19,618 nucleotides of DNA from a virus (taxonomy: Duplodnaviria; Heunggongvirae; Uroviricota; Caudoviricetes): IMG/VR virus record IMGVR_UViG_2526164662_000035, positions 1-19,618 of that record. The stretch is one strand, 5' to 3'. This document shows, piece by piece, positions 1,188 to 16,884 of this stretch. Positions within the stretch are counted from its first letter, which is position 1, and each line of letters begins with the position of its first letter. Under the pieces are notes generated by a model. It worked only from the letters and a program-made list of their open reading frames with translations, ran no database searches and was not told the DNA's origin. Both the position numbers and the translations under genes were made by a program.

Positions 1188-1442
1188 GGACGGCAAAAAG
1201 TAGGGTAACGAGATACTGACACACAGCACGTTGCCGATGTTGAAGCCGCTGAACAGAAGAAGGCTGCGTTACTGGCTGAAGCGCAGGATAAAATAAGTCT
1301 CTGGCAGACAGAATTGCGACTGGACATCATCAGTGATGGGGATAAGGAAAGTCTGATTGCGTGGGTGCAGTACATAAAAGCCATTCAGGCTATAGATACT
1401 TCATCTGCGCCAAATATCAACTGGCCCACCGAACCAGAATAG
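1188..1442 (+). pseudogene. tfa: Tfa C-terminal conserved domain, in the same frame as the N-terminal part but cut off by TAG (1185-1187) and TAA (1206-1208)
   Basis: Same frame as 852-1187. Codons 1209-1439 translate to RDTDTQHVADVEAAEQKKAALLAEAQDKISLWQTELRLDIISDGDKESLIAWVQYIKAIQAIDTSSAPNINWPTEPE, the typical Tfa C-terminus (...LLAEA...W..Y...L..VDTS.AP.I.WP). No start codon of its own. The two stops sit in an imperfect 14-15 bp tandem repeat (caaaagtaggga / caaaaagtagggta). Confidence 0.65.
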
Positions 1443-1589
1443 GAACGTTTGGGGAAGAGTTAGATTAAGGGATGAACTAATTGATGATTAATGCTTTTAA
1501 TTACAAAAGTGTAACTGGAGGTGTATTATTATAAAATAAAAAACGAAGCGTGAGAAGGGGCAAAATAGACAATGGCAGCGCTTTTTATT

Positions 1590-1618
1590 TGTGCTTTGAG
1601 TGTTTAACTCAAAGCACA
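1590..1618. terminator. Perfect 12-bp stem hairpin (TGTGCTTTGAGT-gttta-ACTCAAAGCACA) in the intergenic region, possible bidirectional terminator
   Basis: Perfect inverted repeat read directly. T-rich on the upstream + side (gcgctttttattt) and moderately T-rich downstream. Lies between the tfa remnant and the 3' end of the minus-strand acyltransferase. Confidence 0.35.
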
Positions 1619-1871
1619 TGTTCTAAATTATTTACTTTCGTATTTAAGGGGGTTAGGTTATGACCATTTGGTCAAACAAAACGTTTTAAAAATTCTGCGA
1701 TGGGTTTTTCTATGTACATATGAATGACGCTGCCAGGCGCACAAACTTATTATAAAGTATATTCCAATATATAGGAATACATTGGAATAATCAATAAGTC
1801 CGAAAGACACAAACATATATGATACCCAAGCTGTAATCAAACCATGCGTCAAATATATACTATATGAAGCA

Positions 1872-2764
1872 TCACCGACGGAAAATAATAAGTTTAGCCG
1901 GTTTTATTTTACCTTCAAGGCTCAACGCTGCCCAGACACCATAAAAAGCGAAAAACCCCCATATCAAAGGACGATGCCATTCCCCCCCCATGTTTGTTGT
2001 AATATTAAAGTATTCACATAATAAGAATGTGGGAATAAACAAAGTTAATATTGTAAGCGCAATTGTTTTTTTTAACATAGCGCCCAGTAAGTATAATCGA
2101 TACATAAACATACCCATAGCAAATACGACCATTTCTGGTCTTGCCAGTGTTTTCATGAACGGAAGAATTTCGAATATGATGCTGTTATTTTGATAAGTTA
2201 AAATATTAGCTACTATGGATATAGTTAAAAATAAGATCTCTATATACTCTAACCTTGATAATTTGATAGCAATAAAAAATGCAAAAGAAGTATAAAACAA
2301 AAATTCAAGTTGTAATGTCCAACCTATACTTAGAATTGCATCGCGATGCCAGTGAGTGAATGTAATACTCTCAAGATACCATTGAAGACTGATTTTTGTT
2401 TCGGGCCACCAATAAGCAATAGGTGGAGTTGGGGAAGATATATAATGTTTTACTATGAAGGCTGATAGAACGCAAAGGGCGGTAATTAAAGCATATACCG
2501 GGATTATTCTTATTACTCTTCGCATAAAAAAGTTCCCTGCAGATATTTTGAATTCTCCTTCTGATTGAGAGCCACCATATGCTACGTAAGGTATAATAAA
2601 CCACTAATTATGAAAAATATAATAACGCCAAATCCTCCCAGAGATGCAAGGATTTCGATATTCCCAATGCCATATTGTCCAAGTTCGGCATGTGCCAAAA
2701 CCACCATAGCTGCAGCAATAAACCTTAGTGCTTGTATATTGAAAAGCGTTTTTCTTTTATTCAT
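1872..2764 (-). pseudogene. Acyltransferase family 3 (OafA/Oac-like, O-antigen acetyltransferase type) membrane protein, frameshifted near 2525-2585
   Basis: ORF 2582-2764 starts MNKRKTLFNIQALRFIAAAMVVLAHA...FFIISGLLYLT (typical acyltransferase-3 N-terminus). ORF 1872-2525 in another frame carries the signature RRVIRIIPVY and is strongly hydrophobic. My translation shows the second frame is open upstream to a stop at 2604-2606, so the break is a single frame shift around 2580-2590. The hydrophobic ORF 1658-1852 may be a further degraded 3' piece. The region is markedly AT-rich compared with the flanking tail genes. Confidence 0.7.
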
Positions 2765-2880
2765 TTATATACTGACCCAATTTTGTAATTATGAAACTTT
2801 AATTGATAAGGTAAGCATACTAAATAACTGATAAAAATAATAGATCAATTGAAGGGAACACAATCAGGGTTGTGCCATCT

Positions 2881-3176
2881 GCTAAACTCCAAATATTAAA
2901 AATCACTAATACCAGAGCACTAATGGGGCTCTCCATGATGTACTGGGGACAATTGGACAAAATGGAAAGGGAAATGATTGTTGAGCGAACGCAGGCGGGA
3001 TTAGCTGAGCACTCACTGGAGGTTGGATAGGTAGCCGTAGGCCAAACCTAACAGATGAACAATGGGCGCAGGCCGGGCGATTAATTGCATCAGGCGTTCC
3101 TCGCCAGAAGGTGGCGATCATCTATGATGTTGGTATATCGACACTGTATAAGAAGTTTCCGGTCGGAGATAAATGA
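2881..3176 (+). pseudogene. DNA invertase (Gin/Pin/Hin/Cin family serine recombinase), C-terminal remnant with a -1 frameshift and no catalytic N-terminal domain
   Basis: Frame 1 (2923-3030) reads MGLSMMYWGQLDKMEREMIVERTQAGLAEHSLEVG*. Frame 0 (3021-3176) reads GWIGSRRPNLTDEQWAQAGRLIASGVPRQKVAIIYDVGISTLYKKFPVGDK*, nearly the same as the Gin/Pin C-terminal HTH region (GRIGGRRPKLTPEQWAQAGRLIAAGTPRQKVAIIYDVGVSTLYKRFPAGDK, recalled from memory). The N-terminal ~120 aa with the catalytic serine is absent. Confidence 0.8.
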
Positions 3177-3236
3177 AACCGTAGCACGTCGTATGCAAGA
3201 AGATCGTGCTGCGGTTTATGCTTATCACTTAAAGAC

Positions 3237-4106
<870 letters not shown>

Positions 4107-4190
4107 CTAACCCTTTGAATTTACATAGCGCAAAAAGATACCTTTCCTCATAATGTGAGCTAATTTTATGTTTCGTTTGATGATCGGGTC

Positions 4191-4251
4191 GGTCTCGAAA
4201 ACCGGAGTAGGGGCAACTCTACTGGGGGTTCAAATCCCCCTCTCTCCGCCA
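4191..4251 (+). other. 3' fragment (61 nt) of tRNA-Ser(CGA), serU-like; att remnant, probably the prophage attR
   Basis: ggtctcgaaaaccggagtaggggcaactctactgggggttcaaatccccctctctccgcca: anticodon loop CUCGAAA, long variable arm, T-loop GTTCAAATC, acceptor 3' strand plus CCA. The 5' acceptor strand and D-arm are not present upstream, so this is not an intact tRNA gene. Confidence 0.8.
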
Positions 4252-4826
4252 CTTTATCAATGACTTATCTCCCGACTTCCCGCCTTGCTTTTCCTAAACA
4301 GAACAATCGTAGAATATTCTTGAAGGGTTAGATCGTCACTGTTTTCTGTTCGATACTGTGACATTCAGCACTTGATTCGCTATGGATCTGACAGGAAGGT
4401 TTCGAGCGAAAATCTGCAGTTATTCAGTCGTTTTCTTATCGGTCACCATTATTCTTTTAGACATTGATCCTACAAAGCTGCCGCAAAGTTGGTGGTGGGA
4501 ACTGAAGTTGCGTAGAGAAGGGGTCAATACCCGGAGGCACACATGGGCTGGCAAAAGTGTAGCGGTATTAGGCGCAGCTATTTAGCCTAGTTATGTTTTA
4601 TGAAAACTTGATATCATATAAGTGTCTTACTTATTGGCTGTAAATAAGTTTTTCCTAAGGAATTGTTTCTTGAGTATCATTTGTAACTGTAACGGAATTT
4701 ATAATCCTTTGCTTTATTGTTACGGTATTTTTTATCACACCCTATTTTTTATGTGGTTTTTTATACTGAAGTTTGGCAAAGTGAACTTTATATGCATATA
4801 CTTCATCCTGGTTTCAGTTAAATTGG

Positions 4827-5579
4827 GTGGATGATATGGCAACTACATGTTCAGTTATATTGATTTTGGAGTCCTTTGATATTTATTTCGGAAAAGAGAG
4901 TGTGTTTCTGGAGAGAGGTTCATCTGTACTTGTCGACTCTAGCTCTAGAGATTTTTTCCTGACATATCCTGAAAGAGTGATAGTGGCGGATTTTGGCGCT
5001 GAGTTTATTAGTCGCTATTTGAAAGCTAATAACTTAAGGGATATTTCTGATTGTAGGGAATATCCATCTTATTTAAAAATAAACTTTGCTGACTTCAGTT
5101 TAATTAAAGGATTAATTAGTTGGGCTAATCACTGTGCTGAATACATAGAAATTTTTGATGAGTCTATTGCTTTTACATGTCTCTCTGCATTTTCTTCTGA
5201 AAAACAATTTGGAGTATTTCTGTTTGGATGTTTGAAAAGCACAGGGGCTAAAGTTAAAACGATTATTCATACGGATTTATCTGCACCATGGCGTCTTAAG
5301 GATATATCATCAAGATTATATCTCAGCGAAAGTTTACTAAAGAGGAAATTGAAAGAAGAGGGGATATCATTCAGTAAGATCATACTTGATGAGAGGATGC
5401 AAATGGCTGAATATTTACTCAGCACTCGTTGTTATCCTATTAGTAAAGTAGCTAAGGTCTGTGGTTATGCCAGTGTCTCATACTTTACTTATGTATTTAG
5501 ACGTTATTTTGGTGTTTCTCCAAGTCAATACTCTCAGAGGAGTTCAGAAAGTAAAATTCTTACTCACCAGGGAATCTGA
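4827..5579 (+). CDS. AraC/XylS-family transcriptional regulator (AppY/GadX/Rns-like; low GC)
   Basis: C-terminal double-HTH signature: ...LSAPWRLKDISSRLYLSESLLKRKLKEEGISFSKIILDERMQMAEYLLSTRCYPISKVAKVCGYASVSYFTYVFRRYFGVSPSQYSQR. About 250 aa, like AppY-type regulators. The ATG at 4836 has better spacing to GGTGG and may be the true start. Confidence 0.85.
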   Translation: MDDMATTCSVILILESFDIYFGKESVFLERGSSVLVDSSSRDFFLTYPERVIVADFGAEFISRYLKANNLRDISDCREYPSYLKINFADFSLIKGLISWANHCAEYIEIFDESIAFTCLSAFSSEKQFGVFLFGCLKSTGAKVKTIIHTDLSAPWRLKDISSRLYLSESLLKRKLKEEGISFSKIILDERMQMAEYLLSTRCYPISKVAKVCGYASVSYFTYVFRRYFGVSPSQYSQRSSESKILTHQGI

Positions 5580-5584
5580 TCATT

Positions 5585-5850
5585 GTTCTTGCCCCCTTAT
5601 TTCCAGACAGGGGGTGTATCTTAAGTTAACGTTACCCGCTGACGTCGATATTCTCGCGGAGAGCGATAACCCAACGCACTGTGCGGATGGTTTTCATTGT
5701 AATGTTCGATCGCCACTGCAAGATTATGCAATGCCGTTCTTACATTCGGTTTCGGCATGAACGCGATGTAGTCTTCCTTCATCGTTTTCACGAATCTTTC
5801 TGCCATTCCATTACTCTGAGGACTGCTGATTACCCATGAGGAGTACAATT
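5585..5850 (-). mobile_element. Truncated IS2-like (IS3 family) element: 3' end of the orfB transposase plus the terminal inverted repeat
   Basis: Minus-strand ORF 5621-5848 translates to ...[63 protein letters not shown], the C-terminus of IS2 OrfB. Beyond its stop the minus strand reads ...CTGTCTGGAAATAAGGGGGCAAG, matching the IS2 terminal repeat (TGTCTGGAAATATAGGGGCAAATCCA, from memory). Only ~265 bp of the IS is present, abutting the AraC gene stop. Confidence 0.8.
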
Positions 5851-6068
5851 AAACGGGTTAATCAGTTTCTCCATTTGAAAGAAAAAAGACTTCTGTACTG
5901 TTTGATATCACCGCTATTTTCTTATTTTCTGTGCAGGTCGTAGTGGGACAAAACTGAGACACATAAGGCCTCACAATGGCTTGCAAGGCTTTACATGTTT
6001 TGATGTGGTGGGACGTGTGAGCGCAGTGTTGATGGGGTAATACTTTGAATTAGAAGCGGATTCTTATG

Positions 6069-6114
6069 ATTCGTAATGCGAAGGTCGTAGGTTCGACTCC
6101 TATTATCGGCACCA
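6069..6114 (+). other. 3' fragment (46 nt) of tRNA-Thr (thrW-like); att site
   Basis: attcgtaatgcgaaggtcgtaggttcgactcctattatcggcacca matches the 3' 46 nt of E. coli thrW including CCA. The 5' half of the tRNA is not present upstream. A 46-bp thrW core is what I recall for P22-type attachment sites. Confidence 0.85.
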
Positions 6115-6721
6115 TCAAGAAAATCAATAACTTAGCTTAACTTCTCTAAGAAATTGTATCTTCTGTTATCACTTACAAACGCCTATACGTTGTTATGGGC
6201 TTTGGTAGTGTAACACGTATGGGCGAGTAGTTCCCAGGCTCAACCTCGTAACAAGTTCCTTTGAAGCTGGAAGACGTGCCACCGTCTCTAAACCTTCTAC
6301 CAAAACTCTTAGCAAGATGTTCCACACCTGGCGCGGTGTCCAATGATGCTACACGTCGAGATGACGTCGCAGAGGATAAACAGGCTAAATGATGGGAAGA
6401 GTTTTAAGTGCAATAGTGGATTAAAGCCCACCTCTTCAAAACCTAACTTGATCGGGAAAGAATCAAGCTCTAGCACGGTTTCGTCCACCGGAGTACAACG
6501 GGTGCCTGATAAGAGAAGAACTGCTAAGACTTCATAGCTTTTGTGAAAAAGCCCTTTTTAGTGGATATGCCTACGGCGCTTATTTTTTGGTATAACCATC
6601 AAAGGCGCTTTATGGCTCCTATTGTCTTGAAAATGTATCTTTACTTGTATTGTGTTTTATGCGTAGTCTCCCTGTGTAGTATGTAACTTGTTAATTTTCA
6701 TATGAATACAGAGGCAACACG

Positions 6722-6874
6722 ATGAAAAACATTGCAGCTATAAAACGTAATAACCGCAAGATTCACGCTCGTAAGTTCCTGTCTACGCCAGAGGGAAAAG
6801 CCTGGCTAGAGCGTAAACAGCGAGAGAACGAAGAAAGAAAACTCCTTAGTGAGTTGAAATGGCTTAAGGATTGA
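6722..6874 (+). CDS. Small basic protein (50 aa), hypothetical
   Basis: ATG with AGAGG 9 nt upstream. Product MKNIAAIKRNNRKIHARKFLSTPEGKAWLERKQRENEERKLLSELKWLKD. Followed by a long hairpin at 6884-6927. Below the 60-aa cutoff of the supplied ORF track. Confidence 0.35.
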   Translation: MKNIAAIKRNNRKIHARKFLSTPEGKAWLERKQRENEERKLLSELKWLKD

Positions 6875-6883
6875 ATCACCAGT

Positions 6884-6927
6884 AGGCGCATAACACATCC
6901 AGCAATCAAAGATGTGTTTGTGCGCCT
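6884..6927 (+). terminator. Long imperfect hairpin (AGGCGCATAACACATC ... GATGTGTTTGTGCGCCT) after the small ORF; possible terminator or RNA structure
   Basis: Stem of ~16 bp with an 11-nt loop read directly. The T-run (agttttttag) is ~20 nt downstream, so it is not a canonical intrinsic terminator. Confidence 0.3.
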
Positions 6928-7424
6928 GATAGTGAAATTATTAAAGTTTTTTAGTTAATGTAGCCATTGCATGAACGATGATCGCTAGTGAATCGATTTT
7001 ATCTCGAGGGGTAAAATAGATGAGGTATATGATGGTAACAATTACAGCTAAAGTAATTGTGGTTCTGCAGGTTTTTAAAATGGATAAGATAAAGCGCATA
7101 GATACCCCCTATTGATTTAACAACAACAAGGTATCATTTATTTTTTATTGCATGCAATGTGCAAATTTTCACATATAATAGCTTACTATTCACTTTGCAT
7201 GGTGTCAACAAGATGATGTGTTGTTTTGTTTGATTTGTTCAAGATAATATTTCATTTTCTCATCTATATAACTTGTGTTTTAGATAATTTCACTAATTGT
7301 AAAAGTTACGTATTGCTTAATAGCTGCCTTTTTATCTGAAATCGGCGCAAACGTGATCAATGTTTAACGCGAAGATCAGCGGCGTCAGGTCCACGCAGCG
7401 ACAATTCTCAAATATCAGGAGGCA

Positions 7425-7982
7425 TTACGCTTCCTGCTCTTTCTTGATACGTTGCACCGTCTGTGTGCTGACACTGAAATCTTTTGCTACGCTCCGAATT
7501 GATCCACCATTCGCGAGAGCGGCAACAATTCCCGCTCGATCAATTGCTTTTCCATTACCACGTTTTGCTATACGTCCAGCGGCCTTAGCTGCGGCAATCC
7601 CCTCACGTTGCCGCTCAAGCATCATTTCACGTTCCATTTGTGCCACTGCTGCAAGCACTGTGAGCATCATATTCCCTGCGGGAGAGTTCTTCCCTGTCTT
7701 AAAGTCTTCTTTATGGAAATGCACAGACACGCCGCGCTCTGTTAATTGCTCAACCGTTGCCAGTAGGTCGGCTGTATTACGGCAAAGTCGATCAATGCTG
7801 TGAACATGCAAAACATCACCTTCACGCACATAGTTCATCATTGCCTCAAACTGTGGGCGCTGGGTATTCTTGCCTGACGCTTTATCTTCAAAGACTTTAT
7901 CAAGAGTTACTCCAGCTAATTGACGGTCTGTGTTTTGTTGGACAGTCGATACCCTAATGTATCCAATATTAGCCATTTTCAT
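7425..7982 (-). CDS. Small serine recombinase (resolvase/invertase family, 185 aa)
   Basis: N-terminal catalytic motif GYIRVSTVQQNTDRQ with the conserved Ser, a central ...DRLCRNTADLL... segment, and a C-terminal HTH (GGSIRSVAKDFSVSTQTVQRIKK). Length and layout match gamma-delta/Tn3 TnpR-type resolvases. GGAA lies upstream of the ATG. Confidence 0.9.
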   Translation of the reverse strand: MKMANIGYIRVSTVQQNTDRQLAGVTLDKVFEDKASGKNTQRPQFEAMMNYVREGDVLHVHSIDRLCRNTADLLATVEQLTERGVSVHFHKEDFKTGKNSPAGNMMLTVLAAVAQMEREMMLERQREGIAAAKAAGRIAKRGNGKAIDRAGIVAALANGGSIRSVAKDFSVSTQTVQRIKKEQEA

Positions 7983-7990
7983 TTTCCTTC

Positions 7991-8107
7991 TGTGTTGATT
8001 TGTGTGTAGTGATTATTGATCGTGTTGATTAGGTGTGTAAATGACTTTTTTCACTACGAAATTCGAAGGTTTTTAGTGTGGTGATTTAGCCTGCTTTATC
8101 ACTACAC
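7991..8107. promoter_or_regulatory. Cluster of GTGT(A/G/T)G(T)GATT motifs in both orientations just upstream of the serine recombinase; candidate res/operator site
   Basis: TGTGTTGATT (7991-8000), GTGTAGTGATT (8004-8014), GTGTTGATT (8022-8030), GTGTGGTGATT (8077-8087), and inverted ATCACTACAC (8098-8107) and TCACTAC (8051-8057). Multi-subsite res sites sit immediately upstream of resolvase genes in Tn3-family systems. Confidence 0.4.
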
Positions 8108-8504
8108 GTCTTGCATGAGAATCATGTAGTTATGCTTTGGTAAAATTAGCAAGCTATTAAATAGCGTGTTTATTTTGAAAAAATTAATTTTTTCAACACG
8201 TGAAAGGAACTTGTTCGACAAATAATAGATTGATTTTTAATCAACAATTTCTGATAGTGCTCTGTAAGCCACATTACACAAGGCGCAGCGAAAGTGATGT
8301 AAAAGTGAAGAAAGCTAACATTGCACTTTTAAGCTACTTTTCATTGAATTTTTAGTATGGAATTACATAGGGATTAATCATCAATTAATCTTGAATTTAA
8401 GCCTGTTTTAGATGTTTAATTTTTGATAGCAAGAAACACTTTTAGAAGATCATTGCACAGATGTTATGTGATAAATGGATGTAACGGTAGGTCACTGTGA
8501 ACTA

Positions 8505-8640
8505 CCCCCCACAGAATTCTGTTATCCTTAACTTTTAAAGAAATATGCACCCTAACAGAAAACTGTTACCCCAACCCTAACAGAATTATGTTAGACACCC
8601 CCACAGAAAACTGTTAGCCACCCCTACAGAATTTTGTTAC
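8505..8640 (+). repeat. Array of five phased iterons, each a palindrome CCC-(T)AACAG-N4-CTGTTA, spaced ~23 bp (first one 44 bp upstream)
   Basis: Copies centred on ACAGAATTCTGT (8511-8522), TAACAGAAAACTGTTA (8553-8568), TAACAGAATTATGTTA (8578-8593), CACAGAAAACTGTTA (8602-8616), TACAGAATTTTGTTA (8625-8639). ACAG start positions 8511, 8555, 8580, 8603, 8626. Each is preceded by a short C-run. An AT-rich tract follows at ~8641-8720. Confidence 0.8.
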
Positions 8641-9135
8641 CTATTAGATCAACTATCAAACTACAATTAAATTATCTTTTATAAATTCTTTTATCTTTAA
8701 AGAATAATTATAGGGATACCCGTTAGGGGAGTCTTCGACTATCCCTTAATCTATTGGCATTCGCCAGAACCTTGCACAAGTTAGAGTGTTAGTCGTTAGA
8801 CTGCTTGTCATAACACATAGTTTTTTGTTTGTTGATGTTAGTTAGTAGATCTATGTTCGCTAATGCCGCTCACAACGAATATGTAATCTACTATGTGCAA
8901 ATAGCCTACGGCTTGCGTAAGGCTAAATAGTCTTGCGCTGTGCGCAGAACGATAATTAACTAACTACCATCTAACGATCATCAATCTATTTAAGAGAAAA
9001 TCTATTGTGCAATACTCTGACGAGTGCAATAACCTTGTGTGCTACGCGTTAGCGATGTTAGCACATAGACACAGACAACAACCAACAACAAACAAAAAGA
9101 ATGGTTTTAGTAGTTGAAGGTTAAATAAGATTCTA

Positions 9136-9365
9136 CCGCTTAAATCAAGCCGTAGGCGAGCTAAACGTATATAAGGTAGGGAAACACTTAGCGGTAATAG
9201 ATTAGCTCGTTATAGAGTTTCTGAGAGCTTTGCAGGTATTTTATAAGATGTCTGAAATTAGATTTTATCTATCATCATCTTCCCATATACCTAACAAATA
9301 CAAAATAACCCCCTTAAATAAGCCTCTGGCGAGCTAAACAGCCATTACATAAGGGAATGTATTGT
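9136..9365 (+). repeat. Two copies of a ~45-bp imperfect direct repeat (CTTAAAT-AAGCC-N3-GGCGAGCTAAAC...ATAAGG..GGGAA) about 173 bp apart
   Basis: 9136-9187 cgcttaaatcaagccgtaggcgagctaaacgtatataaggtagggaaa versus 9309-9365 cccttaaataagcctctggcgagctaaacagccattacataagggaatg. A tandem GCGTTTTAGA x2 follows at ~9388-9407. Confidence 0.6.
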
Positions 9366-9500
9366 TTTTATCAAAACCTCGTTAGAACGCGTTTTAGAGC
9401 GTTTTAGACAATAATAAAGAATAGCACTACACATGAGAGCACGAATTGCTAAGAAATATCATAACTTACTGAAAATGATCAATATTTATATGGATAGGGG

Positions 9501-9529
9501 TTGACAAAAGCTTTTAGTCGTGGTAAAGT
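9501..9529 (+). promoter_or_regulatory. Sigma70-like promoter candidate (TTGACA-17 bp-TAAAGT) upstream of the early small-gene cluster
   Basis: TTGACA at 9501-9506, 17-nt spacer, TAAAGT at 9524-9529. The first gene of the cluster starts at 9650 with a strong AGGAGG ribosome-binding site. Confidence 0.3.
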
Positions 9530-9649
9530 AATATTAGGGACAGAAAACATTCTTATCCTCTAAGTAATTAAACCAATGCACCGCACTTTGAAGCCCAAGG
9601 CTTGCAAGGTGTCTTTTTCTTTTAACCAAATAGAATAGGAGGTTAATTA

Positions 9650-9850
9650 ATGAAGTATTACACTCCACAGGATGTAATCGAAGCCTGGAAACGTGGTGAG
9701 ATCAATCGTTTTAAAGTAAGGATGAACAGGAACACAGCGCGACGCTGTGGTTATCCAGAGCGTGAAAAATGCTTTGACGATGCACTAAAAATTATTGATG
9801 AATTAAGAAAAAATGAAAAAGGATCTGAAAAAGAATCTGAAACAGAGTAA
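9650..9850 (+). CDS. Hypothetical small protein (66 aa)
   Basis: Strong ribosome-binding site (aggaggttaattaATG). Charged product MKYYTPQDVIEAWKRGEINRFKVRMNRNTARRCGYPEREKCFDDALKIIDELRKNEKGSEKESETE. First gene after the 1.7-kb noncoding region. Confidence 0.5.
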   Translation: MKYYTPQDVIEAWKRGEINRFKVRMNRNTARRCGYPEREKCFDDALKIIDELRKNEKGSEKESETE

Positions 9851-9869
9851 AGAAGAGAAGGAGAAAACT

Positions 9870-10040
9870 ATGAGCGAAACTACAGAAAAGAAAAGACAAC
9901 CACGCACTTGCTTTCATATTCCTGATGAAGTATTTCAGGTGTTGTTTAAAGAAGCCAGAAGTAAACGTATCACTGTTACAGATTACATTCTTGATATGTT
10001 GAAAAGAGAGGCTGAAACACTCTCAAACAAAAGCAAGTGA
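9870..10040 (+). CDS. Putative ribbon-helix-helix (Arc/CopG-like) DNA-binding protein (56 aa)
   Basis: ATG at 9870 preceded by GGAGAA. Product MSETTEKKRQPRTCFHIPDEVFQVLFKEARSKRITVTDYILDMLKREAETLSNKSK shows a beta-strand/helix/helix pattern (RTCFHIP / DEVFQVLFKEA / VTDYILDMLKRE) typical of RHH regulators. The ORF-track start at 9813 overlaps the upstream gene and is less likely. Confidence 0.45.
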   Translation: MSETTEKKRQPRTCFHIPDEVFQVLFKEARSKRITVTDYILDMLKREAETLSNKSK

Positions 10041-10093
10041 TTTTTATCACCATAGTAGCGCCGTAGAGCGTGATTACATCAAGGAGATTTTTA

Positions 10094-10663
10094 ATGATTA
10101 ATGAAGAACAATTTGTAAAAGTTCCTATGTGGATTCTAAAAATAAGCCAAGTAAACGGGCATAAATTTACAGATAGTGCTAAAAACCTTTACTGCTATTT
10201 GAGAGGGTTTGATCGTGCATTTCCCTCTTACGCTAAGATAGGCGATGTTTTTGGCATAACACCAAGAGCAGCAGAAGAAAGGGTTAAGAAATTGCTCGAA
10301 ATGGGATTAATTATAAAAGATGCACGACCAGGAAGCTCTAACCTTTATCGAGTGCTTGATATTCCAAAAGGAGAATCATCACTACCTGATCCTTCTGAGA
10401 AAGAAGACGAATCTAATGAAATATTGAATGTTTCCGAAATCATCGTTGAAGAAGAAACACAGGAATCAGAGTTCCCTGAGCGGCCCGAAATTTTTACTTG
10501 GCTTCTTTCCCTTGATAAGAAGAAACCACCGCACGAAGAAACAGAAGATTTTGTAAAACGTGCATTAGATTCAAAGAATATCTATCTTGAGAAACAGGCT
10601 TTTCACGATCTGATAATATCTCTAAGAGAAAAAAGTGAAATATACGATTCAATACCATTCTAA
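10094..10663 (+). CDS. Winged-helix DNA-binding protein with an acidic C-terminal region; candidate replication initiator or iteron-binding protein
   Basis: ATG at 10094 with AAGGAG 7 nt upstream. N-terminal region MINEEQFVKVPMWILKISQVNGHKFTDSAKNLYCYLRGFDRAFPSYAKIGDVFGITPRAAEERVKKLLEMGLIIKD resembles the winged-helix N-terminal domain of phage/plasmid replication initiators. Function is inferred. Confidence 0.45.
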   Translation: MINEEQFVKVPMWILKISQVNGHKFTDSAKNLYCYLRGFDRAFPSYAKIGDVFGITPRAAEERVKKLLEMGLIIKDARPGSSNLYRVLDIPKGESSLPDPSEKEDESNEILNVSEIIVEEETQESEFPERPEIFTWLLSLDKKKPPHEETEDFVKRALDSKNIYLEKQAFHDLIISLREKSEIYDSIPF

Positions 10664-10672
10664 GGAGAATAA

Positions 10673-10942
10673 ATGACTTATAACATCACTATAGGAAACA
10701 AAACTATTGAAATAACTGAAAGCGGATACAACATTTTAAAAGCTATTTTGGACATAGAGTTCTCACCCCCGACAGTGGTTAGCTTTTGTAGTTTAGGCGG
10801 CTACAGCGCACAACATGTGAATCATTGGTTAAACCATTTTACATCGTTCGGTGTGCTGGATTATGAAGGGATTAACCACACTACATTTCGTCTTTTGAAA
10901 TTAAACAAAGATTTTGAATTGTTTATCACAAACAATCAATAA
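10673..10942 (+). CDS. Hypothetical protein (89 aa)
   Basis: ATG preceded by AGGAG (taaggagaataaATG). 10 nt after the upstream gene, consistent with an operon. Confidence 0.5.
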   Translation: MTYNITIGNKTIEITESGYNILKAILDIEFSPPTVVSFCSLGGYSAQHVNHWLNHFTSFGVLDYEGINHTTFRLLKLNKDFELFITNNQ

Positions 10943-11038
10943 CAACAGATCGGGCAATACATATGGCAAATGCATTTATGGCGATATTCATCGTAACAAT
11001 GGTATCAAGTTTTTATAATCCACATAAAAAGAGAGAAA

Positions 11039-11422
11039 ATGGGAAGAAAGAAAAAGAACAACTTAAAACGTATTGAAAAAAACAGTAACTTCAATTCAAC
11101 AAGACAACGTCCACCGACACACACCAATAACGAAATTCCAGGGGAAGAGATAATATTTATTCTTGAAACAGAATCCCCTGAAATAAGCGATGAAGAACAA
11201 GAAATAATCAAATCAATGCCAGGCGTTTACTTTCGCCCAAGAACAAGAAAACAAACAATAATTTCTGATGGCACTCTGAAACGTTGGCAGCTTTTAGGGT
11301 TTAGCTCCTATCATCATTTTTTGGGATTTAACGCTTTCAATAATTGTGTAGGTGGTGCATCGGAAGTCGATCTGATGGCTCATTTAGAAGCTACATTAGC
11401 TTCTAACAAACGCTCTAACTAA
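11039..11422 (+). CDS. Hypothetical protein (127 aa), basic N-terminus and acidic middle
   Basis: ORF with N-terminal MGRKKKNNLKRIEK and a central acidic stretch ETESPEISDEEQEI. No recognisable catalytic motif. Confidence 0.45.
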   Translation: MGRKKKNNLKRIEKNSNFNSTRQRPPTHTNNEIPGEEIIFILETESPEISDEEQEIIKSMPGVYFRPRTRKQTIISDGTLKRWQLLGFSSYHHFLGFNAFNNCVGGASEVDLMAHLEATLASNKRSN

Positions 11423-11437
11423 TAAAAGGATGGTCGT

Positions 11438-11683
11438 ATGTATAAGCGCCCAATGAAAATATTCGAAAAAGGAAAAATAATGATTGGCTATATTCAAGAA
11501 ACACAATTATTTCAGATGATCCTGTCTGATGCAAAAAACTATGCTGAGTTAATCCGACTGGCAAAAGAAACAGAAGACTACGAAGCATTAGAGCGTTATC
11601 GTGATGAAGTGCTGACGCTCAAGACACCTTTTAACATCGTATTGAATATGATTAATGATGCATTACAAGGAGAAGCCGCATAA
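11438..11683 (+). CDS. Hypothetical small protein (81 aa)
   Basis: ATG preceded by AAGGATGG. Stop overlaps the start of the next ORF (TAATGG), suggesting translational coupling. Confidence 0.45.
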   Translation: MYKRPMKIFEKGKIMIGYIQETQLFQMILSDAKNYAELIRLAKETEDYEALERYRDEVLTLKTPFNIVLNMINDALQGEAA

Positions 11684-11991
11684 TGGAAGAAGATATTAGC
11701 AATGCAATGGAACAACTTTTAGATCTGACTATCTCACTACAAACAAGAATAAATCAAGCCTATTCAGATTTATGCGATTACACGCTCTCTCAATGCGTTA
11801 TTAGCTTAATGAAGGTGAATGTAAGCCTTGACGATTTTATCTCTCTGGTGAGCGATTTAGAGCTAATTGAGGACGATGCCAAGATGTGCACTCAAACCAT
11901 CACAGACACCGCCAGCACGTTAAAGGCTGCAAGTGAAGAGATTCAGCAATTAGTAGATGATTTAGCAAAAAGTGCTATTCCCTCTAAATGA
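11683..11991 (+). CDS. Hypothetical acidic helical protein (102 aa)
   Basis: Start overlaps the upstream stop. Last gene before the second ORF-free region. Confidence 0.45.
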   Translation: MEEDISNAMEQLLDLTISLQTRINQAYSDLCDYTLSQCVISLMKVNVSLDDFISLVSDLELIEDDAKMCTQTITDTASTLKAASEEIQQLVDDLAKSAIPSK

Positions 11992-12734
11992 TAATGAAAA
12001 TCATTTGCATTTATATAATAAAAATGTTATATTTGTATTAAGGGTAGATAAAAAGGTTTTGACTGGTGTTAATCCTTCTACTGTCATAAATCCCTGCATA
12101 TGGAAGGTGATAGCCTCAAGGGTTGAGTGGCATTAACCTCTAACAAATATTACCTTCCATCTCTCAAGAAGTTTTAGAATAATCATAACTCCCTCTTTGA
12201 TTGTTGATTGTTTCTACGTTGTGTTGATGAATGTTGTTAGGCATTGTGCTTAATTTTGATAAAAGCGGGTAGGTGTTATCTCCTTGCCCTTCCCGCTCTT
12301 ATTTTTCATCTATGCTTATCCTAAAGCTCCTTATTTTGTCCGAAAACATTAAAGAGCCTTACACTGATAGTTATATTTTATAACTATTTACTAACATCAT
12401 TAAACTCTTATTTAATGACAGAAGTTAGTAACAGAATAATCTATTAAGTTGTTGTCAAAAAACTATCATCTGCATAGCGTTAGCCGCAAGCAGAGAGAGT
12501 TTAGCTAAGAATTGTGCAATAACCTTTGGAAATATTGATAGCAAAACGGGTTTTATAGACTGCAAATCTATAATCTTTGGTTGTAAAAACGCTTTTTCTG
12601 AAACGGTAGATTATTGTTGGTGTAGTTAATCCCTATTAAAATTTAATCTGTGAGTAGATTGGAATAGTGATTCCTTAAAATCTGACTGGTGCATCCACAC
12701 CATGAAAGATAGCGGTTAGCCACCGCACCCGAAT

Positions 12735-12790
12735 AGATATTCCTGATTGATTCCGCATGTTTTCCTAAGAGCATGTTTTCAGGAATATCT
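12735..12790. repeat. Perfect 12-bp inverted repeat AGATATTCCTGA ... TCAGGAATATCT around a 32-bp spacer containing GCATGTTTTC twice
   Basis: Read directly: 12735-12746 and 12779-12790 are exact reverse complements. The spacer holds the direct repeat GCATGTTTTC x2. Confidence 0.7.
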
Positions 12791-12897
12791 GTTCACCCTT
12801 TAAACCTATCTTTAAGCATGTTTAATAAGCATTCTTAGAGATACGTTTAAAACCTCCTCAAGGTTTTACTTATCGCTGTGTATTGCCCGACACGTTA

Positions 12898-12950
12898 ATA
12901 AATCCCCCTCGCTATTCTCAGATTGAACCTCTTATAGCCTGGGGGATTTA
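12898..12950. repeat. Perfect 10-bp inverted repeat TAAATCCCCC ... GGGGGATTTA around a 33-bp spacer, just upstream of the structural cluster
   Basis: 12898-12907 and 12941-12950 are exact reverse complements. Lies ~30 bp upstream of the ORF starting at 12983. Confidence 0.6.
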
Positions 12951-12982
12951 TTAAATTCCAACATAATGGAATCGTTATATAA

Positions 12983-13192
12983 ATGAAACAAGAAATTATC
13001 CTGAAATATGGCAATGAAAAGTTAACACTAACTGAAGATGTGTTGAATGCTACAGCCTACGCGCTTGGTATCACTCCCACAGAATTAAAGAAACAGTGTG
13101 AACGTCTTTATAAGGCTGAAAGCAATAAACCATCTCACCAAGATTTGATTAATGCTAAAGCTCAACAAATCAAACAATCTAAGGAAAAATAA
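12983..13192 (+). CDS. Hypothetical small protein (69 aa), first gene of the structural-type cluster
   Basis: ORF whose stop overlaps the next start (TAATGG). Confidence 0.45.
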   Translation: MKQEIILKYGNEKLTLTEDVLNATAYALGITPTELKKQCERLYKAESNKPSHQDLINAKAQQIKQSKEK

Positions 13193-13566
13193 TGGCTATT
13201 TTAAAATTAAGCGATGTTTTCCTACATCGTAAAAGCATCACTGACGTAGTGAGCTATGCAACCGACCCTTACGCGGCTGTAGAAAGCAAAAAATTTGCAG
13301 CACTTGCACAAGATGTAACGTGCGGCGACCTCATTGATTCATCCGGCGCTAAATATGTTAGCGGCGCTGATGTTCTTGTCGTTGTGTCTGACTTCGTAAC
13401 TGCTGATTCAAATAAAACAGTTAACGTGCTTCGTGCTAATGCCGGACTCGTTTGCATCAAAGCTGATGCCCTGAATGCCGAAGGCGCTGTAAAAGAAGCT
13501 GCTATTGCAGCTCTCGCTGCTAAAGGCTTCCAGCTTGAAGGCTTCCACTCTGTTTTCACATCTTAA
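13192..13566 (+). CDS. Possible head decoration or scaffold protein (124 aa), positioned like lambda gpD
   Basis: AAGGAA ribosome-binding site. Ala/Val/Gly-rich product immediately upstream of the gpE-like capsid gene. The gpD analogy rests on position and size only; sequence similarity is weak. Confidence 0.4.
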   Translation: MAILKLSDVFLHRKSITDVVSYATDPYAAVESKKFAALAQDVTCGDLIDSSGAKYVSGADVLVVVSDFVTADSNKTVNVLRANAGLVCIKADALNAEGAVKEAAIAALAAKGFQLEGFHSVFTS

Positions 13567-13582
13567 GAAGGAATAAATAATA

Positions 13583-14611
13583 ATGATTATCGGAAATGAA
13601 GTGGTTGATCTTGCTCCACTGTTCGAATTAAACGACTCACGCAATTACCTACTGTCTACTCTGGATTTTACTGATCCTGTGCCTGTAGAAAGTCACAAAG
13701 TGGCTGTTTCCCAGCTTATCGAGAGCAATGAATCTCTGTTCAACCATCCTACAAGCCGTTTTAGCTCTGAGCATAACGTTACTAAGCGTGAGAACGGGGA
13801 AGAATATCTTATTGAAATCCCGTACTTTTTAAGGGAAGACCTGATCAAACCGCAGGACGTGCAAGGCAAACGCAAAGCCGGAAGCTCTATTGAAGAAACA
13901 CTGCCGGATCTGTATGCGGAATATATCGCTAAACACAATGTTGCATTCCAGCGCACTAAAGAAAGCATCCTCGCGGCTTCTCTGTTCTCTGGCAAGACAC
14001 ACACCCCGAAAACTGACGATGTTCTGATCGATTACAGCACTCTGTTCGGTGTGTCTCCAATGACTGCAACCGTTGACGCATCCAGCACCAACACAATGAC
14101 CGTATTCAAGCAATTTGATCAGATGCATACGGATATGATTGCTAAGGCACAAAGCCAGGCTGCAACCATTGAGCGTGTTGTTGTGTTCTGTAAACCTGCG
14201 GCATTCAACGCTATTCGTTACAGCGTTGGCATGGTTAATGCGTTCCAGTATGCAAGCCCTGTAGACGATGCAAACGTGGTGTTTAATGTGCGTTCTCTGC
14301 TGCCTGGTGTAACTACTTTCACCATTCCAGGAACTAACATTGACCTGATCAAAGTGACTGATCCGCTGCTGCTGGCACATATGACCGCTGACGCTGTAGC
14401 TATTCCTAAACTTGCTAAGGGGGCAGGTGTTTACCAAGCTATTTTTGGTGCGCCTTCCAGTTCATTCGATCTGCTGTCTCAAGGCGCTAAAGAGTATTAC
14501 AGCTATGCTTTCGAATCGAATCGCGGCGACGCAGTGCACGTAGTGACCGAGAATAGCTCGCTTGTGGTTAACCACGGTGTTGGCTTCTCTGTGCAGATCA
14601 CAGTAGCGTAA
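13583..14611 (+). CDS. Putative major capsid protein, lambda gpE family (342 aa)
   Basis: GAAGGA ribosome-binding site. Length matches lambda gpE (341 aa). Local matches to gpE as I recall it: HKVAVSQLIE vs EKVYLSQIPG near the N-terminus, and C-terminal GFSVQITVA vs EFVSVQLA. Needs profile confirmation. Confidence 0.55.
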   Translation: MIIGNEVVDLAPLFELNDSRNYLLSTLDFTDPVPVESHKVAVSQLIESNESLFNHPTSRFSSEHNVTKRENGEEYLIEIPYFLREDLIKPQDVQGKRKAGSSIEETLPDLYAEYIAKHNVAFQRTKESILAASLFSGKTHTPKTDDVLIDYSTLFGVSPMTATVDASSTNTMTVFKQFDQMHTDMIAKAQSQAATIERVVVFCKPAAFNAIRYSVGMVNAFQYASPVDDANVVFNVRSLLPGVTTFTIPGTNIDLIKVTDPLLLAHMTADAVAIPKLAKGAGVYQAIFGAPSSSFDLLSQGAKEYYSYAFESNRGDAVHVVTENSSLVVNHGVGFSVQITVA

Positions 14612-14763
14612 AAAGTGTTAAAGACGTTCCCCTACGTCTGGAAATAATCGGGGCAATAAGGGTAAGGGATAATCATATAAGCAAAATATGCGCTGTCTCT
14701 TGCCCTTTTTGTTTTTCTACTGTCTACAAACCTAAATAAAAATATATATGTGAGAGAAAACCA

Positions 14764-14961
14764 ATGAACACAGAAAATTCACAGGCATTAATTCTTAAAT
14801 CTGTAAAAGAACTGGCAGCTATTAGCGATGACTCAATAATCAATGTCAGTGCCTTATGCAGAATGCTTTCAATTGATGCAAATAATGTGCGTCAGCGTGT
14901 CTTTCAGACTGGATGTAGCACTTTCGAAGCAATCCAATATTATTGCTCTAAAAAACAATAA
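14764..14961 (+). CDS. Hypothetical small protein (65 aa)
   Basis: ORF between the capsid-like gene and the 613-aa gene. Weak ribosome-binding site. Confidence 0.35.
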   Translation: MNTENSQALILKSVKELAAISDDSIINVSALCRMLSIDANNVRQRVFQTGCSTFEAIQYYCSKKQ

Positions 14962-14995
14962 CAAATAACAATCATAATACAGGGAAACAATTAAC

Positions 14996-16837
14996 ATGTT
15001 AGAGCTAAACGTGGCACGCCTCTCGAACGTTGTCACCTTCGAAGTTAACCGACCATCATTAGAGAAAGCAAAAGCAGAAGTAGAAAAACTTCGTAAACAA
15101 ATGGCGGCGGTGAAAGATATAGAATTGCGTGTTAAGACACATAAACAATCAACCGCTAAAGCAAAAAAAGACGTAGACGATATTGCTAAAAAGCAAGCAC
15201 AGGCTGATAAAGCTAATGCTAAAGCACAATTAGCCGCTCAACGTGTAGTTGCAAGAGAACAAAAAGCCCTGGCAGCACGCAAAGAGAAGGCAGAATTAAA
15301 GCTTTTAGACGTTGGAGCAAGCATTAGTGCAATGCACCGTCTTTCTGTAGCGGAACAATATAAAGCTATTGCACAGGCTAGAGAAATTGCCCTCCAATAT
15401 GAAAGAGGCGCTATTAGTCTGGCACGTATGAATAGCCAAATGAAACGCCTACAACAGCAACAACGTAAGATTAATGGCAATCGTAACGCTCACGCTAAAG
15501 CCTATGCACCTGTTAAGGGTAGCGGGAGTATTGGCGGCGGTGCTGCGGCTGTTATGCTGGGTGGCTTAGGCGCTGGCGCTACGTATATGGCTATGAGCAA
15601 AGCCTCTGAATTTGTTACTAACAGCTTTGCGAATGCTGAAACGCTGGGTGAATTGTATAGCCGTGCGAAGCTGGGCGGTGTAGACGTTAACCAGATGAAC
15701 AATATTGAGCAATGGGCCTACAAAAACGGCGTTGATTCAATGATGGGCGAACAAGGTCGTAGGAAGTATCTCGATCAGATGAAAGATGTACGGGAGAAGG
15801 CTACTAAATCTTATGATGAGGCTGAATATGTAGTTGATAAGAAAACTGGTAAAGGAGAATGGAAGGGCGGCGATAGCGGCATCAATACTTTAATGAATGA
15901 AGGATTCCTAACTAAAAAGGATCTAAAAGACTTTGCTGATAATCCGGCTGGTCTGGTTAGTAAAGCAGTTCAGGGAATGGTAGCTAAAGGCTATTCAGAT
16001 GCACAAATCGGTAGTCGTCTGGAAGATCTGGCTGATGATTTGATGCTCACCTCTAAATACTGGACACGCTCCGCTAAAGAAGTGGAACAATCAGCACGAG
16101 AACAACGAGAATCAGGGCGCTGGGTAACGCAGGCACAACAGGAAAGCGTTATTAAATTCCGTGAACTGAATAATGCACTTAGTGGGCTTTCTGACTCACA
16201 AGGGATCGCCTTTGTTGATGGCTTTATGAAATCTCTTGATCCGAAAGTGATTGAAGAGTTTAAAAAGAGCATGGTTGCAATGCTGCCAATGTTTACCAAA
16301 TTAGGCGAGGCTATCGGCGGATTGGTTAACGCCGTAATGAAAACAATCAACTGGCTGATGAAAAACGACGAGAAGACGGAAGCTATTCAGAAGAATTTAG
16401 GGGATGCACCGCCACTATCTAACGAAGGAATGAAGCAGAATCTTTCTAATCTCACTCCTGATCAATATAAAGGCGCTGGCACCGGAACAACTAAGCCAGA
16501 TAACAGCAATTCCCTGGTTAACACTATTAAAAGCTGGTTTATGCCAGAAGAAACGGTAGGTGGGGCGCAGGCTGTAAATCAATACAGTCTCGAAGGACAA
16601 AATATTGCAAATCTGAAACAGAGTGCAGCACAACAAGCTTTCAAGGCTCCTTCTTACACCTTTGCACCTGTTATTAACTTCAATCCAGAATTACAAGTAA
16701 ATGCAGAAGTGCCGCTAACTATCGAATCAGACACCGGACGATTGAGCGAATTTATCGACTTCAAATCAAAGGCATCTTCCGCTGAGTTTAGCAAGCTATT
16801 AACGCTGGGTGTTATGTCAGGCGGGTCAACCTATTAA
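14996..16837 (+). CDS. Large coiled-coil protein (613 aa) with a Gly/Ala-rich hydrophobic segment; candidate internal virion, scaffold or ejection-like protein
   Basis: N-terminal ~170 aa are Lys/Ala/Gln/Glu-rich heptad-like sequence (KAKAEVEKLRKQMAAVK...KKQAQADKANAKAQLAAQR...), followed by GSGSIGGGAAAVMLGGLGAGATYMAMS and a ~400-aa C-terminal region. No Walker A motif, so not a terminase or helicase. Confidence 0.55.
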   Translation: MLELNVARLSNVVTFEVNRPSLEKAKAEVEKLRKQMAAVKDIELRVKTHKQSTAKAKKDVDDIAKKQAQADKANAKAQLAAQRVVAREQKALAARKEKAELKLLDVGASISAMHRLSVAEQYKAIAQAREIALQYERGAISLARMNSQMKRLQQQQRKINGNRNAHAKAYAPVKGSGSIGGGAAAVMLGGLGAGATYMAMSKASEFVTNSFANAETLGELYSRAKLGGVDVNQMNNIEQWAYKNGVDSMMGEQGRRKYLDQMKDVREKATKSYDEAEYVVDKKTGKGEWKGGDSGINTLMNEGFLTKKDLKDFADNPAGLVSKAVQGMVAKGYSDAQIGSRLEDLADDLMLTSKYWTRSAKEVEQSAREQRESGRWVTQAQQESVIKFRELNNALSGLSDSQGIAFVDGFMKSLDPKVIEEFKKSMVAMLPMFTKLGEAIGGLVNAVMKTINWLMKNDEKTEAIQKNLGDAPPLSNEGMKQNLSNLTPDQYKGAGTGTTKPDNSNSLVNTIKSWFMPEETVGGAQAVNQYSLEGQNIANLKQSAAQQAFKAPSYTFAPVINFNPELQVNAEVPLTIESDTGRLSEFIDFKSKASSAEFSKLLTLGVMSGGSTY

Positions 16838-16884
16838 TCATCACTGTGGGGCGGTTTAGCCCCCTTAAATAAGGATTACAAATT

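Follow-up and report, generated by a model that had tools for sequence, protein, structure and literature searches.

Exchangeable repeat cassettes matched to a predicted initiator domain at a candidate replication origin in a satellite-like island of Escherichia coli

The DNA analysed here, called the window throughout, comprises positions 1–19,618 of the virus record IMGVR_UViG_2526164662_000035 (Caudoviricetes) of IMG/VR. It contains an island of ~13 kb (6096–19082) flanked by 20-bp direct repeats (att). Within the island, an array of five short repeats lies next to an AT-rich tract in non-coding DNA, upstream of a gene for a small winged-helix protein. We describe the array and the tract as a candidate replication origin, the protein as its predicted initiator, and a set of phage proteins that share the N-terminal domain of the initiator.

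Results

A phased repeat array beside an AT-rich tract

Five phased copies of a 24-nucleotide unit occupy positions 8504–8642. These units, iterons 1–5, are all on the plus strand and of the type designated A below, and lie at 8504–8527 (ACCCCCCACAGAATTCTGTTATCC), 8548–8571 (CACCCTAACAGAAAACTGTTACCC; missing from the relative L005), 8573–8596 (AACCCTAACAGAATTATGTTAGAC), 8596–8619 (CACCCCCACAGAAAACTGTTAGCC) and 8619–8642 (CACCCCTACAGAATTTTGTTACCT). Each consists of a run of C followed by the dyad (T)AACAG-N4-CTGTTA, and the cores seen are TAACAG-AAAA-CTGTTA or ACAG-AATT-CTGT. Iteron 5 adjoins an AT-rich tract (8643–8712, 86% AT), a candidate DNA-unwinding element that no other 70-mer of the window exceeds in AT content or in duplex instability. 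An AT-rich tract is present at the same position in all loci compared. The initial annotation of this DNA had reported five dyad copies with C-runs followed by ~70 bp of AT-rich sequence, and this layout is what we find. Its spacing was correct for the first gap of 44 bp, but not for a 23-bp period throughout: the start-to-start distances are 44, 25, 23 and 23 bp. The statement that every unit is itself a dyad likewise holds with a qualification, in that the dyad is imperfect in copies 3 (ATGT) and 5 (TTGT); copy 1 is without the left outer TA.

The repeats are not a chance feature of the base composition. The sequence ACAGAANNNTGTTA occurs exactly five times in the window, always inside the array, and when up to one mismatch is allowed there are six matches against 0.67 expected, a number reached in none of 200 dinucleotide-preserving shuffles. 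The array lies within a 1.65-kb stretch (8000–9650) whose longest open reading frame (ORF) is at most 51 amino acids. Transcription diverges around this region, with a recombinase gene read leftward and the operon that includes the initiator gene read rightward. Iteron origins are characterized by at least three phased direct repeats of ~17–24 bp and by a neighbouring AT-rich DNA-unwinding element; the array provides the former and 8643–8712 the latter.

The predicted initiator protein

The gene at 10094–10663 (plus strand) encodes the predicted initiator. Residues 1–92 (10094–10369) form a winged-helix domain of type A, the predicted reader of the iterons and hereafter the N-domain. The remainder (10370–10663, including the stop codon) comprises an acidic disordered linker (residues 93–128), a three-helix domain (residues 130–180) and a floppy tail, YDSIPF (nucleotides 10643–10660). 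An AlphaFold2 (AF2) model with a mean pLDDT of 64 has this same order of winged-helix domain, disordered acidic linker, helical domain and floppy tail. Comparison with relatives revealed that the protein is a mosaic, with the first ~92–130 residues falling into five unrelated-looking winged-helix types and the C-terminal part into at least four.

All five N-domain types match replication-initiator, O-like or DnaD-like PHROGs, with O-like PHROGs reached at 1e-4 to 1e-6 (1e-4 to 1e-5 for the window initiator), while no type matches a transcription-regulator PHROG at E ≤ 1e-3. The DnaD-like PHROG match is weak, as is a Pfam DnaD_N match. Searches for established families gave no match to Pfam RepA_N (PF06970), either with the window protein (E ≤ 0.01) or with a phage chimera carrying the same domain (E ≤ 1; see below), and none to Phage_rep_O (PF04492) with the window protein, whose gene lies 1.45 kb downstream of the array and does not contain it. 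We therefore file the initiator in neither family. A Foldseek search with the model returned RepA_N initiators (4PQL, 4PTA, 4PT7 and 5KBJ) as the top structures in the Protein Data Bank (PDB), over ~102 columns that span the whole N-domain, in matches that are weak (E ~0.03, TM 0.34–0.50, model pLDDT 64). A sequence search of the PDB with the family profile returned generic winged-helix regulators only, at E > 0.001.

The C-terminal domain types, otherwise unalignable, all end in [IL]PF after acidic or aromatic residues (IYDSIPF, YDDFDIPF, GRFGIPF and QSTIPF), and the nine columns that are invariant in the family alignment include Y184, P188 and F189. Such an ending is rare: it was seen in one of 648 phage ORFs and, among 339 ORFs of the flanking chromosomal DNA, in the initiator alone. 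The tail is similar to the C-terminal tip (DDDIPF) of SSB, the protein that binds single-stranded DNA, and, as in SSB, it comes after a disordered acidic linker and is predicted to lack structure. Many proteins of replication and repair dock onto this tip in SSB (PMC5872125). The initiator differs from SSB in being a predicted binder of double-stranded DNA and in having no OB fold.

Cassette exchange and co-variation with the N-domain

Relatives aligned across the array have conserved flanks, between which at least five distinct dyad-repeat cassettes occupy this exact position. Cassette A, the type of the window, has the dyad ACAG-N4-CTGT; B has GGAA-N5-TTCC; C has GTAACG-N4-GTTAC; D has TCAC-T-GTGA within a perfect 22-bp tandem unit (GGGGGTAGGTCACTGTGAGCTA); and E has TATCA-N4-TGATA with CCCC in front. 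All cassette types consist of a phased dyad array followed by the AT-rich tract. Copy number varies, from 2 to ~10 units for type D, and with four units of type A in L005.

In 23 of 23 typed loci, the type of the cassette next to the AT-rich tract is the same as the type of the initiator N-domain. The agreement extends over nine distinct backgrounds (A+C1+R1, A+C2+R2, B+C1, B+C2, C+C1+R2, D+C1+R1, D+C1+R2, E+C2+R1 and E'+C4), and the most diverged island in which it is found has a capsid protein 59% identical to that of the window. Between the cassette and the N-domain coding region lie ~1.45 kb of DNA that are 82–95% conserved within a lineage and include the gene for a small ribbon-helix-helix (RHH)/Arc-like protein (9870–10040, plus strand). 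The two types of this protein, R1 and R2, are each paired with several cassette types; indeed, the RHH gene, the initiator C-terminal domain and the recombinase each reassort independently of the cassette. Because the intervening DNA is conserved and the RHH gene reassorts freely, the pairing does not reflect one swapped block, and is kept by function rather than by linkage. Co-variation in all 23 loci and across nine backgrounds strongly implies that the winged-helix N-domain is the reader of the repeats, each type recognizing its own cassette. The origin array and the N-domain would then constitute a specificity module with a history of at least five exchanges.

These comparisons also bear on the proteins first proposed to bind the array. 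The initial annotation had placed candidate binders at 9870–10663 and had suggested searching other genomes for the iterons beside homologs of those proteins; the 23 loci provide such a comparison. They single out the winged-helix protein at 10094–10663, and in particular its first ~92 residues, whereas the RHH protein is rejected as the binder since R1 and R2 reassort independently of the cassette. A resemblance of the half-sites to the LexA box had been pointed out as well. The LexA (SOS) box is a CTGT-N8-ACAG dyad; the island units, ACAG-N4-CTGT, have the opposite half-site order and another spacing, and unrelated dyads replace the unit in relatives. A LexA box is thus ruled out and the likeness is a coincidence. 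Some RefSeq records carry a 'LexA family' label, which is the PGAP name for the same winged-helix protein.

A relic single unit of the C/D-type cassettes (GTAACGGTAGGTCACTGTGAAC) is found at 8481–8506 on the plus strand, just upstream of the cognate array. Relic units upstream of cognate arrays also occur in L019 (2600–2900), in which four C units, one D and one A precede an E array, and in L024 (3390–3480). These units suggest a fossil record of earlier swaps, with successive cassettes inserted beside the AT-rich tract.

Phage proteins that carry initiator N-domains

Four lytic phages of the Stephanstirmvirinae with genomes of ~150 kb (Mt1B1_P17, BI-EHEC, inny and muut) encode chimeric proteins that begin with an N-domain of the island initiators. 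In these proteins a variable N-domain (A, C or E) is followed by a constant B-type winged-helix domain and a MUG113/T5orf172 domain of the GIY-YIG type. Residues 1–104 of the Mt1B1_P17 chimera (QNJ49226, 328 residues; L010:20042–21028) are 100% identical to the window initiator, and window positions 10054–10408 are 99.2% identical to the DNA of this phage. The syntenic genes of inny (inny_184, L028:901–2004) and muut (muut_154, L029:1301–2299) combine a C-type and an E-type module, respectively, with the constant B-type domain, and their B-type and nuclease-like domains are nearly unchanged relative to Mt1B1_P17. The gene was found in only four distinct phages of the collection. Pfam support for the nuclease-like domain is borderline (MUG113, 22.3–23.6 bits at a gathering score of 22.3; T5orf172, 15–17 bits, below the cut-off of 20), and the C-terminal domain matches phrog_681, 'endonuclease', at 2.4e-18. 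A paralog of this domain is encoded elsewhere in Mt1B1_P17.

Scanning 140.3 kb (93%) of the Mt1B1_P17 genome revealed no exact site of cassette type A, B, C or D and no bare ACAG-N4-CTGT, and a blastn search of phage records with the array found no phage that contains it. The absence of target sites from the scanned phage and from phage records argues that the DNA-binding targets of the chimeras are in the islands and not in the phages. The chimeras look like origin-directed nucleases, and would be multi-specificity analogues of Odn, a nuclease of phage ICP1 considered below. By the same analogy, the five cassettes may be escape variants of an origin under nuclease attack. If the array is attacked as predicted, this indirectly supports a role for it as an essential element in cis, for instance an origin.

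The SSB of Mt1B1_P17 (L015:14863–15795) has the canonical PPMDFDDDIPF motif and is annotated as continuing for 15 residues beyond it (APIGLQYGRNFLHCF). This extension could be real, or could be an artefact of sequencing or annotation.

The array as a probable origin, and alternative functions

Taken together, the data make it likely that the five repeats and the AT-rich tract are the replication origin of the island, that this origin is of the iteron type, and that it is bound by the initiator N-domain. An origin of this type had been proposed from the layout of the repeats, and the comparative evidence, namely the co-variation of cassette and N-domain and the matches to initiator PHROGs, argues in its favour.

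Several observations count against this assignment. Many of the 23 loci are near-identical, so that the number of independent comparisons is closer to nine. No Pfam replication family scores above threshold (HTH_36, 19.8 bits against a cut-off of 25), all E-values of the fold search exceed 0.001, and winged-helix domains are generic. A distance of 1.45 kb separates the array and the initiator gene, unlike in lambda or many plasmids, where the origin is inside that gene or adjacent to it. No DnaA box (TTATCCACA with up to one mismatch, or TTWTNCACA) is present in 8000–9700, and the sole exact consensus site for integration host factor in the same interval, at 8223, is ~280 bp off the array. Satellite status and helper identity, discussed below, are inferred from gene content and homology. 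Finally, a weak promoter-like match on the minus strand (8659–8631) overlaps iteron 5, which makes a regulatory role possible, either alone or in addition to replication.

A purely regulatory role would make the repeats an operator array and the winged-helix protein a transcription factor for a nearby promoter, with no start of replication. Dyads bound by dimeric winged-helix proteins are typical operators, the protein carries the RefSeq label 'transcriptional regulator / LexA family', and the fold search returned regulators of the LexA, MarR and ArsR types at E-values similar to those of the RepA_N initiators. The overlap of the weak minus-strand site with iteron 5 would also fit. However, for several hundred bp around the array there is neither an ORF nor a convincing promoter; the sole strong promoter is located downstream at a distance of ~860 bp, and the region is not enriched in promoter-like sites (five, against 7.3 expected in shuffles). 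A copy number of 2 to ~10 perfect tandem units is unusual for operators, the array always adjoins the least stable DNA, and the N-domain types match initiator PHROGs and not regulator PHROGs. An operator would also leave the SSB-tip-like tail and the phage nuclease fusion unexplained. We therefore regard an operator without replication function as improbable, while noting that initiators often double as autorepressors and that both roles could coexist.

The array might instead be a pac-like packaging site, with the winged-helix protein acting as a small-terminase-like adaptor for the packaging motor of a helper phage. Satellites need a packaging route, and searches of the island revealed no terminase gene. 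Small terminases recognize repeated sites and carry helix-turn-helix domains at the N-terminus, and contact with the large terminase could be made by a C-terminal peptide. Yet the protein has no PHROG or Pfam terminase match, its family matches being replication initiators, and its model has a long disordered acidic linker in place of a small-terminase oligomerization core. Moreover, the tested precedent for a phage nuclease with a satellite DNA-binding domain concerns an origin (PMC8263062). A packaging function is, in our view, very improbable.

Recombination sites (res, hix or accessory) for the serine recombinase encoded at 7425–7982 are hardly credible: although this resolvase/invertase-family gene is only ~520 bp away and such enzymes use dyad-symmetric sites, one recombinase protein (WP_001273869.1 or WP_001273868.1) is found with cassettes A, B and C and so does not co-vary with them, several loci with intact arrays have no annotated recombinase, and five to ten tandem sites beside an AT-rich tract are unlike a res or hix layout.

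A plasmid or a transposon end was also considered as the source of the repeats and was rejected, as 864 of the 865 places that match a 2.7-kb query around the array are chromosomal and the array lies inside an att-bounded island. The repeats are therefore not the end of a known transposon or insertion sequence, a possibility that had been raised when they were first described.

The spacer between the array and the operon promoter

An ORF-free spacer (8713–9500) separates the candidate origin from the operon promoter. Long-range inverted repeats, nested or crossing, are abundant in it (8757–8779/9005–9027, 8782–8800/8970–8988, 8822–8843/9077–9098 and 8904–8934/9127–9157), and it is kept in all lineages at 775–1190 bp, with internal mosaic cassettes. 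RNA folding of the spacer was better than that of shuffled sequences on both strands (z −3.55 and −2.85); RNAalifold gave no covariation support for a structured RNA (term +0.96). Upstream of the operon promoter, a 32-nucleotide direct repeat (9135–9166 and 9308–9339; 75% identical; CTTAAAT-AAGCC...GGCGAGCTAAAC) has its two copies at an interval of 173 bp. It may serve in regulation, with the RHH protein as a possible binder.

The promoter-like site of the operon (9501–9529, plus strand) is of the sigma-70 type, with TTGACA, a 17-nucleotide spacer, TAAAGT and an extended −10 TG. It has 10 of 12 promoter matches and is the top-scoring plus-strand site in 7950–9700. The operon comprises orfA, the RHH gene and the initiator gene. 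The first of these (9650–9850, plus strand) encodes a small conserved protein that is present in 22 of 22 typed loci of the two main lineages and was not found in the most diverged locus, L025.

Borders, gene content and distribution of the island

The left att core, a 20-bp direct repeat (ACTCCTATTATCGGCACCAT), lies at 6096–6115 inside a 3' fragment of tRNA-Thr, and the second copy forms the right att core at 19063–19082. Scans of the window with Rfam models and for tRNAs gave no matches. Of tRNA-Thr, the window holds only the 43-nucleotide 3' fragment (6069–6111), so islands are apparently stacked in tandem at thrW in this strain; in NZ_CP047378, which is 99.9% identical, the island adjoins tRNA-Thr. 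To the left, positions 1–6068 belong to a separate insertion that encodes a LEM-3-like GIY-YIG protein (3237–4061, minus strand), an AraC-family regulator (4827–5579) and an acyltransferase fragment (1872–2525, minus strand). L002 (NZ_AP045173) has an interior near-identical to that of L001 and is located at tRNA-Gly with another tyrosine integrase (1221 versus 1278 nucleotides), which indicates that the integration module is exchangeable too.

Among complete E. coli genomes, 733 of 5426 (~13%) match the 2.7-kb query. A scan of one genome per species with orfA detected Escherichia loci only. No description of this island family, or of an Odn-like system in E. coli, was found in the searchable literature, subscription journals being outside its scope.

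Left of the array, a small serine recombinase or DNA invertase (7425–7982, minus strand; Pfam Resolvase 1e-38, phrog_125) is read away from the candidate origin. In L004 (931–1482) and L005 (936–1487), a plus-strand gene of 552 nucleotides for a 'hypothetical protein' is found where other islands have the 552-nucleotide minus-strand recombinase gene, which would fit either inversion of the segment or the presence of another gene. The right half of the island encodes a major capsid protein (Phage_cap_E; 13583–14611, plus strand), a tape-measure-like protein (14996–16837, plus strand), a Dit-like tail or baseplate protein (16885–17562, plus strand) and a tyrosine integrase (17643–19007, minus strand). 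The first three are 25%, 27% and 53% identical, respectively, to the Mt1B1_P17 head protein and homologs. In that lytic phage (151 kb), the Dit-like and tape-measure homologs are adjacent and the capsid homolog is ~5 kb further (L015:36700–45834). When all phages were searched, the best matches of the island capsid were head proteins of ~150-kb myoviruses, including Phapecoctavirus and Justusliebigvirus. Profile scans recognized no helicase, primase, polymerase, terminase or portal among the island proteins.

The island is thus an integrated element with an integrase and att repeats, and it lacks a full set of virion, lysis and replisome genes; the recognized homologs of helper structural proteins are few, namely the capsid, tape-measure-like and Dit-like proteins only. 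By gene content and homology it looks like a phage satellite, with Stephanstirmvirinae as helper candidates. The three structural homologs point to such helpers, and to remodelling of both head and tail.

A second ORF-free region of ~1 kb (11992–12982) lies in the island, with two very AT-rich stretches, at ~11985 and ~12371. Three strong hairpins or palindromes are clustered at 12731–12954, just upstream of the structural genes. The region could be a control region for a late promoter or a packaging site.

Discussion

A model for origin function

In the mechanism that we propose, dimers of initiator residues 1–92 would bind the dyad in each 23-bp unit, and the phased array would load stress onto the adjoining 70-bp tract, the least stable DNA of the window, leading to its opening. 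The remainder of the initiator, with its acidic linker, helical domain and ...[IL]PF tail, would then recruit replisome proteins of the host or of a helper phage. Recruitment is proposed because the island encodes no detected helicase, primase or polymerase. That the iteron-bound initiator brings in such components through its SSB-tip-like tail in particular is put forward tentatively, as one possibility. A mimic of this kind may dock into the pockets with which host or phage replication proteins, such as PriA, DnaG or the chi subunit, bind SSB. Activation of an origin by an SSB-tip mimic was not found in the literature searched. Replisome recruitment by helicase-less initiators of the RepA_N type has been stated to be unknown (Barth 2020, PMC7145576), and the tail offers a concrete, testable hypothesis for this step.

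The Stephanstirmvirinae chimeras are predicted to cut the array, and such cutting would explain the diversification of the cassettes. We lean towards the view that this is a second, independent arms race between phages and satellites over a replication origin, here in E. coli and with at least five specificities, in which the modular nucleases of the phages would have captured satellite initiator domains almost verbatim and stacked two of them. It is rather unlikely that both proposals hold jointly, that is, that there is an arms race over the origin and that an SSB-tip mimic (...D-x-IPF) nucleates a replisome on double-stranded DNA.

An iteron origin is in itself ordinary; the five-way specificity module, the phage nucleases with stacked domains and the SSB-tip-like tail are not. 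The island family is apparently undescribed, is present in ~13% of complete E. coli genomes, and has as candidate helpers phages that are under development for therapy. With five initiator domains, five cassettes and phage chimeras bearing the same domains, it offers a natural specificity matrix. If the arms-race interpretation is true, it would be the second known case of origin-directed anti-satellite immunity, in a host far more tractable than Vibrio cholerae.

Comparison with known systems

In classical iteron plasmids (pSC101, R6K, F, P1 and RK2), the iterons are asymmetric and bound by Rep monomers, while Rep dimers occupy inverted repeats that lie apart from them, and DnaA boxes are usual. 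The island resembles them in having phased direct repeats of 22–23 bp beside an AT-rich region and an initiator encoded in cis, and differs in the dyad symmetry of each single unit and in the absence of a DnaA box. A closer parallel is the lambda origin, in which AT-rich DNA adjoins four phased dyad iterons, to which the N-terminal domain of O binds as dimers, while the C-terminal domain of O recruits P-DnaB. Common to both are the order of phased dyad iterons and AT-rich tract, and a two-domain initiator in which the N-terminal domain sets origin specificity and the C-terminal domain recruits the replisome, both as predicted for the island. Unlike the lambda origin, which is inside the O gene, the island array is 1.45 kb upstream of its initiator gene in non-coding DNA. 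The island also has no P-like loader gene, its initiator does not reach Phage_rep_O, and the C-terminal domains are unrelated.

The RepA_N plasmids of Firmicutes (pSK41 and pTZ2162) encode the top fold matches of the initiator, and their initiators have a variable C-terminal domain thought to be partner-specific. The fold match is weak, there is no family match at the level of sequence, and the taxa and genetic contexts are different. The iterons of the RepA_N family have been described (PMC7145576) as direct repeats of semi-palindromic sequence that converge on an A-tract, a description that the window units (TAACAG-AAAA-CTGTTA) fit.

The closest known system is that of PLE (an element that resembles phage-inducible chromosomal islands) and ICP1 in V. 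cholerae. ICP1 Odn joins a PLE RepA-like domain to a T5orf172 nuclease; its cutting of the PLE origin depends on the iterons, and it selects for swapping of the replicon module (PMC8263062). PLE RepA resembles the RepA_N structures 4PTA and 4PT7 (PMC7145576), and these two are also the best structural neighbours of the island initiator. PLE and the island, the latter putatively, are both integrated satellites of lytic phages with a non-coding origin of semi-palindromic iterons. Each has an initiator of two domains, the N-terminal one for DNA binding, and lacks a helicase and a primase, and in each the origin and this domain co-vary as a module that can be exchanged. On the phage side, ICP1 and the Stephanstirmvirinae both encode a protein in which an initiator-like domain is fused to a T5orf172/GIY-YIG-type domain that has a paralog in the phage genome.

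The two systems also differ in several respects. PLE and Odn have been tested experimentally, whereas the island system has been read from its sequence only. The island has Escherichia as its host and Stephanstirmvirinae as the corresponding phages; its initiator has no Pfam RepA_N match, and its other genes show no detectable homology to those of PLE. It has a tyrosine integrase where PLE has a large serine recombinase, and it encodes a capsid, a tape-measure-like and a Dit-like protein of its own. The SSB-tip-like tail at the end of its initiator is a further difference from PLE. Whereas two replicon modules are found in PLE, the islands have at least five. The coliphage chimeras, finally, have two tandem winged-helix domains, of which the swapped one is 99–100% identical to that of the satellite, compared with 42% for Odn.

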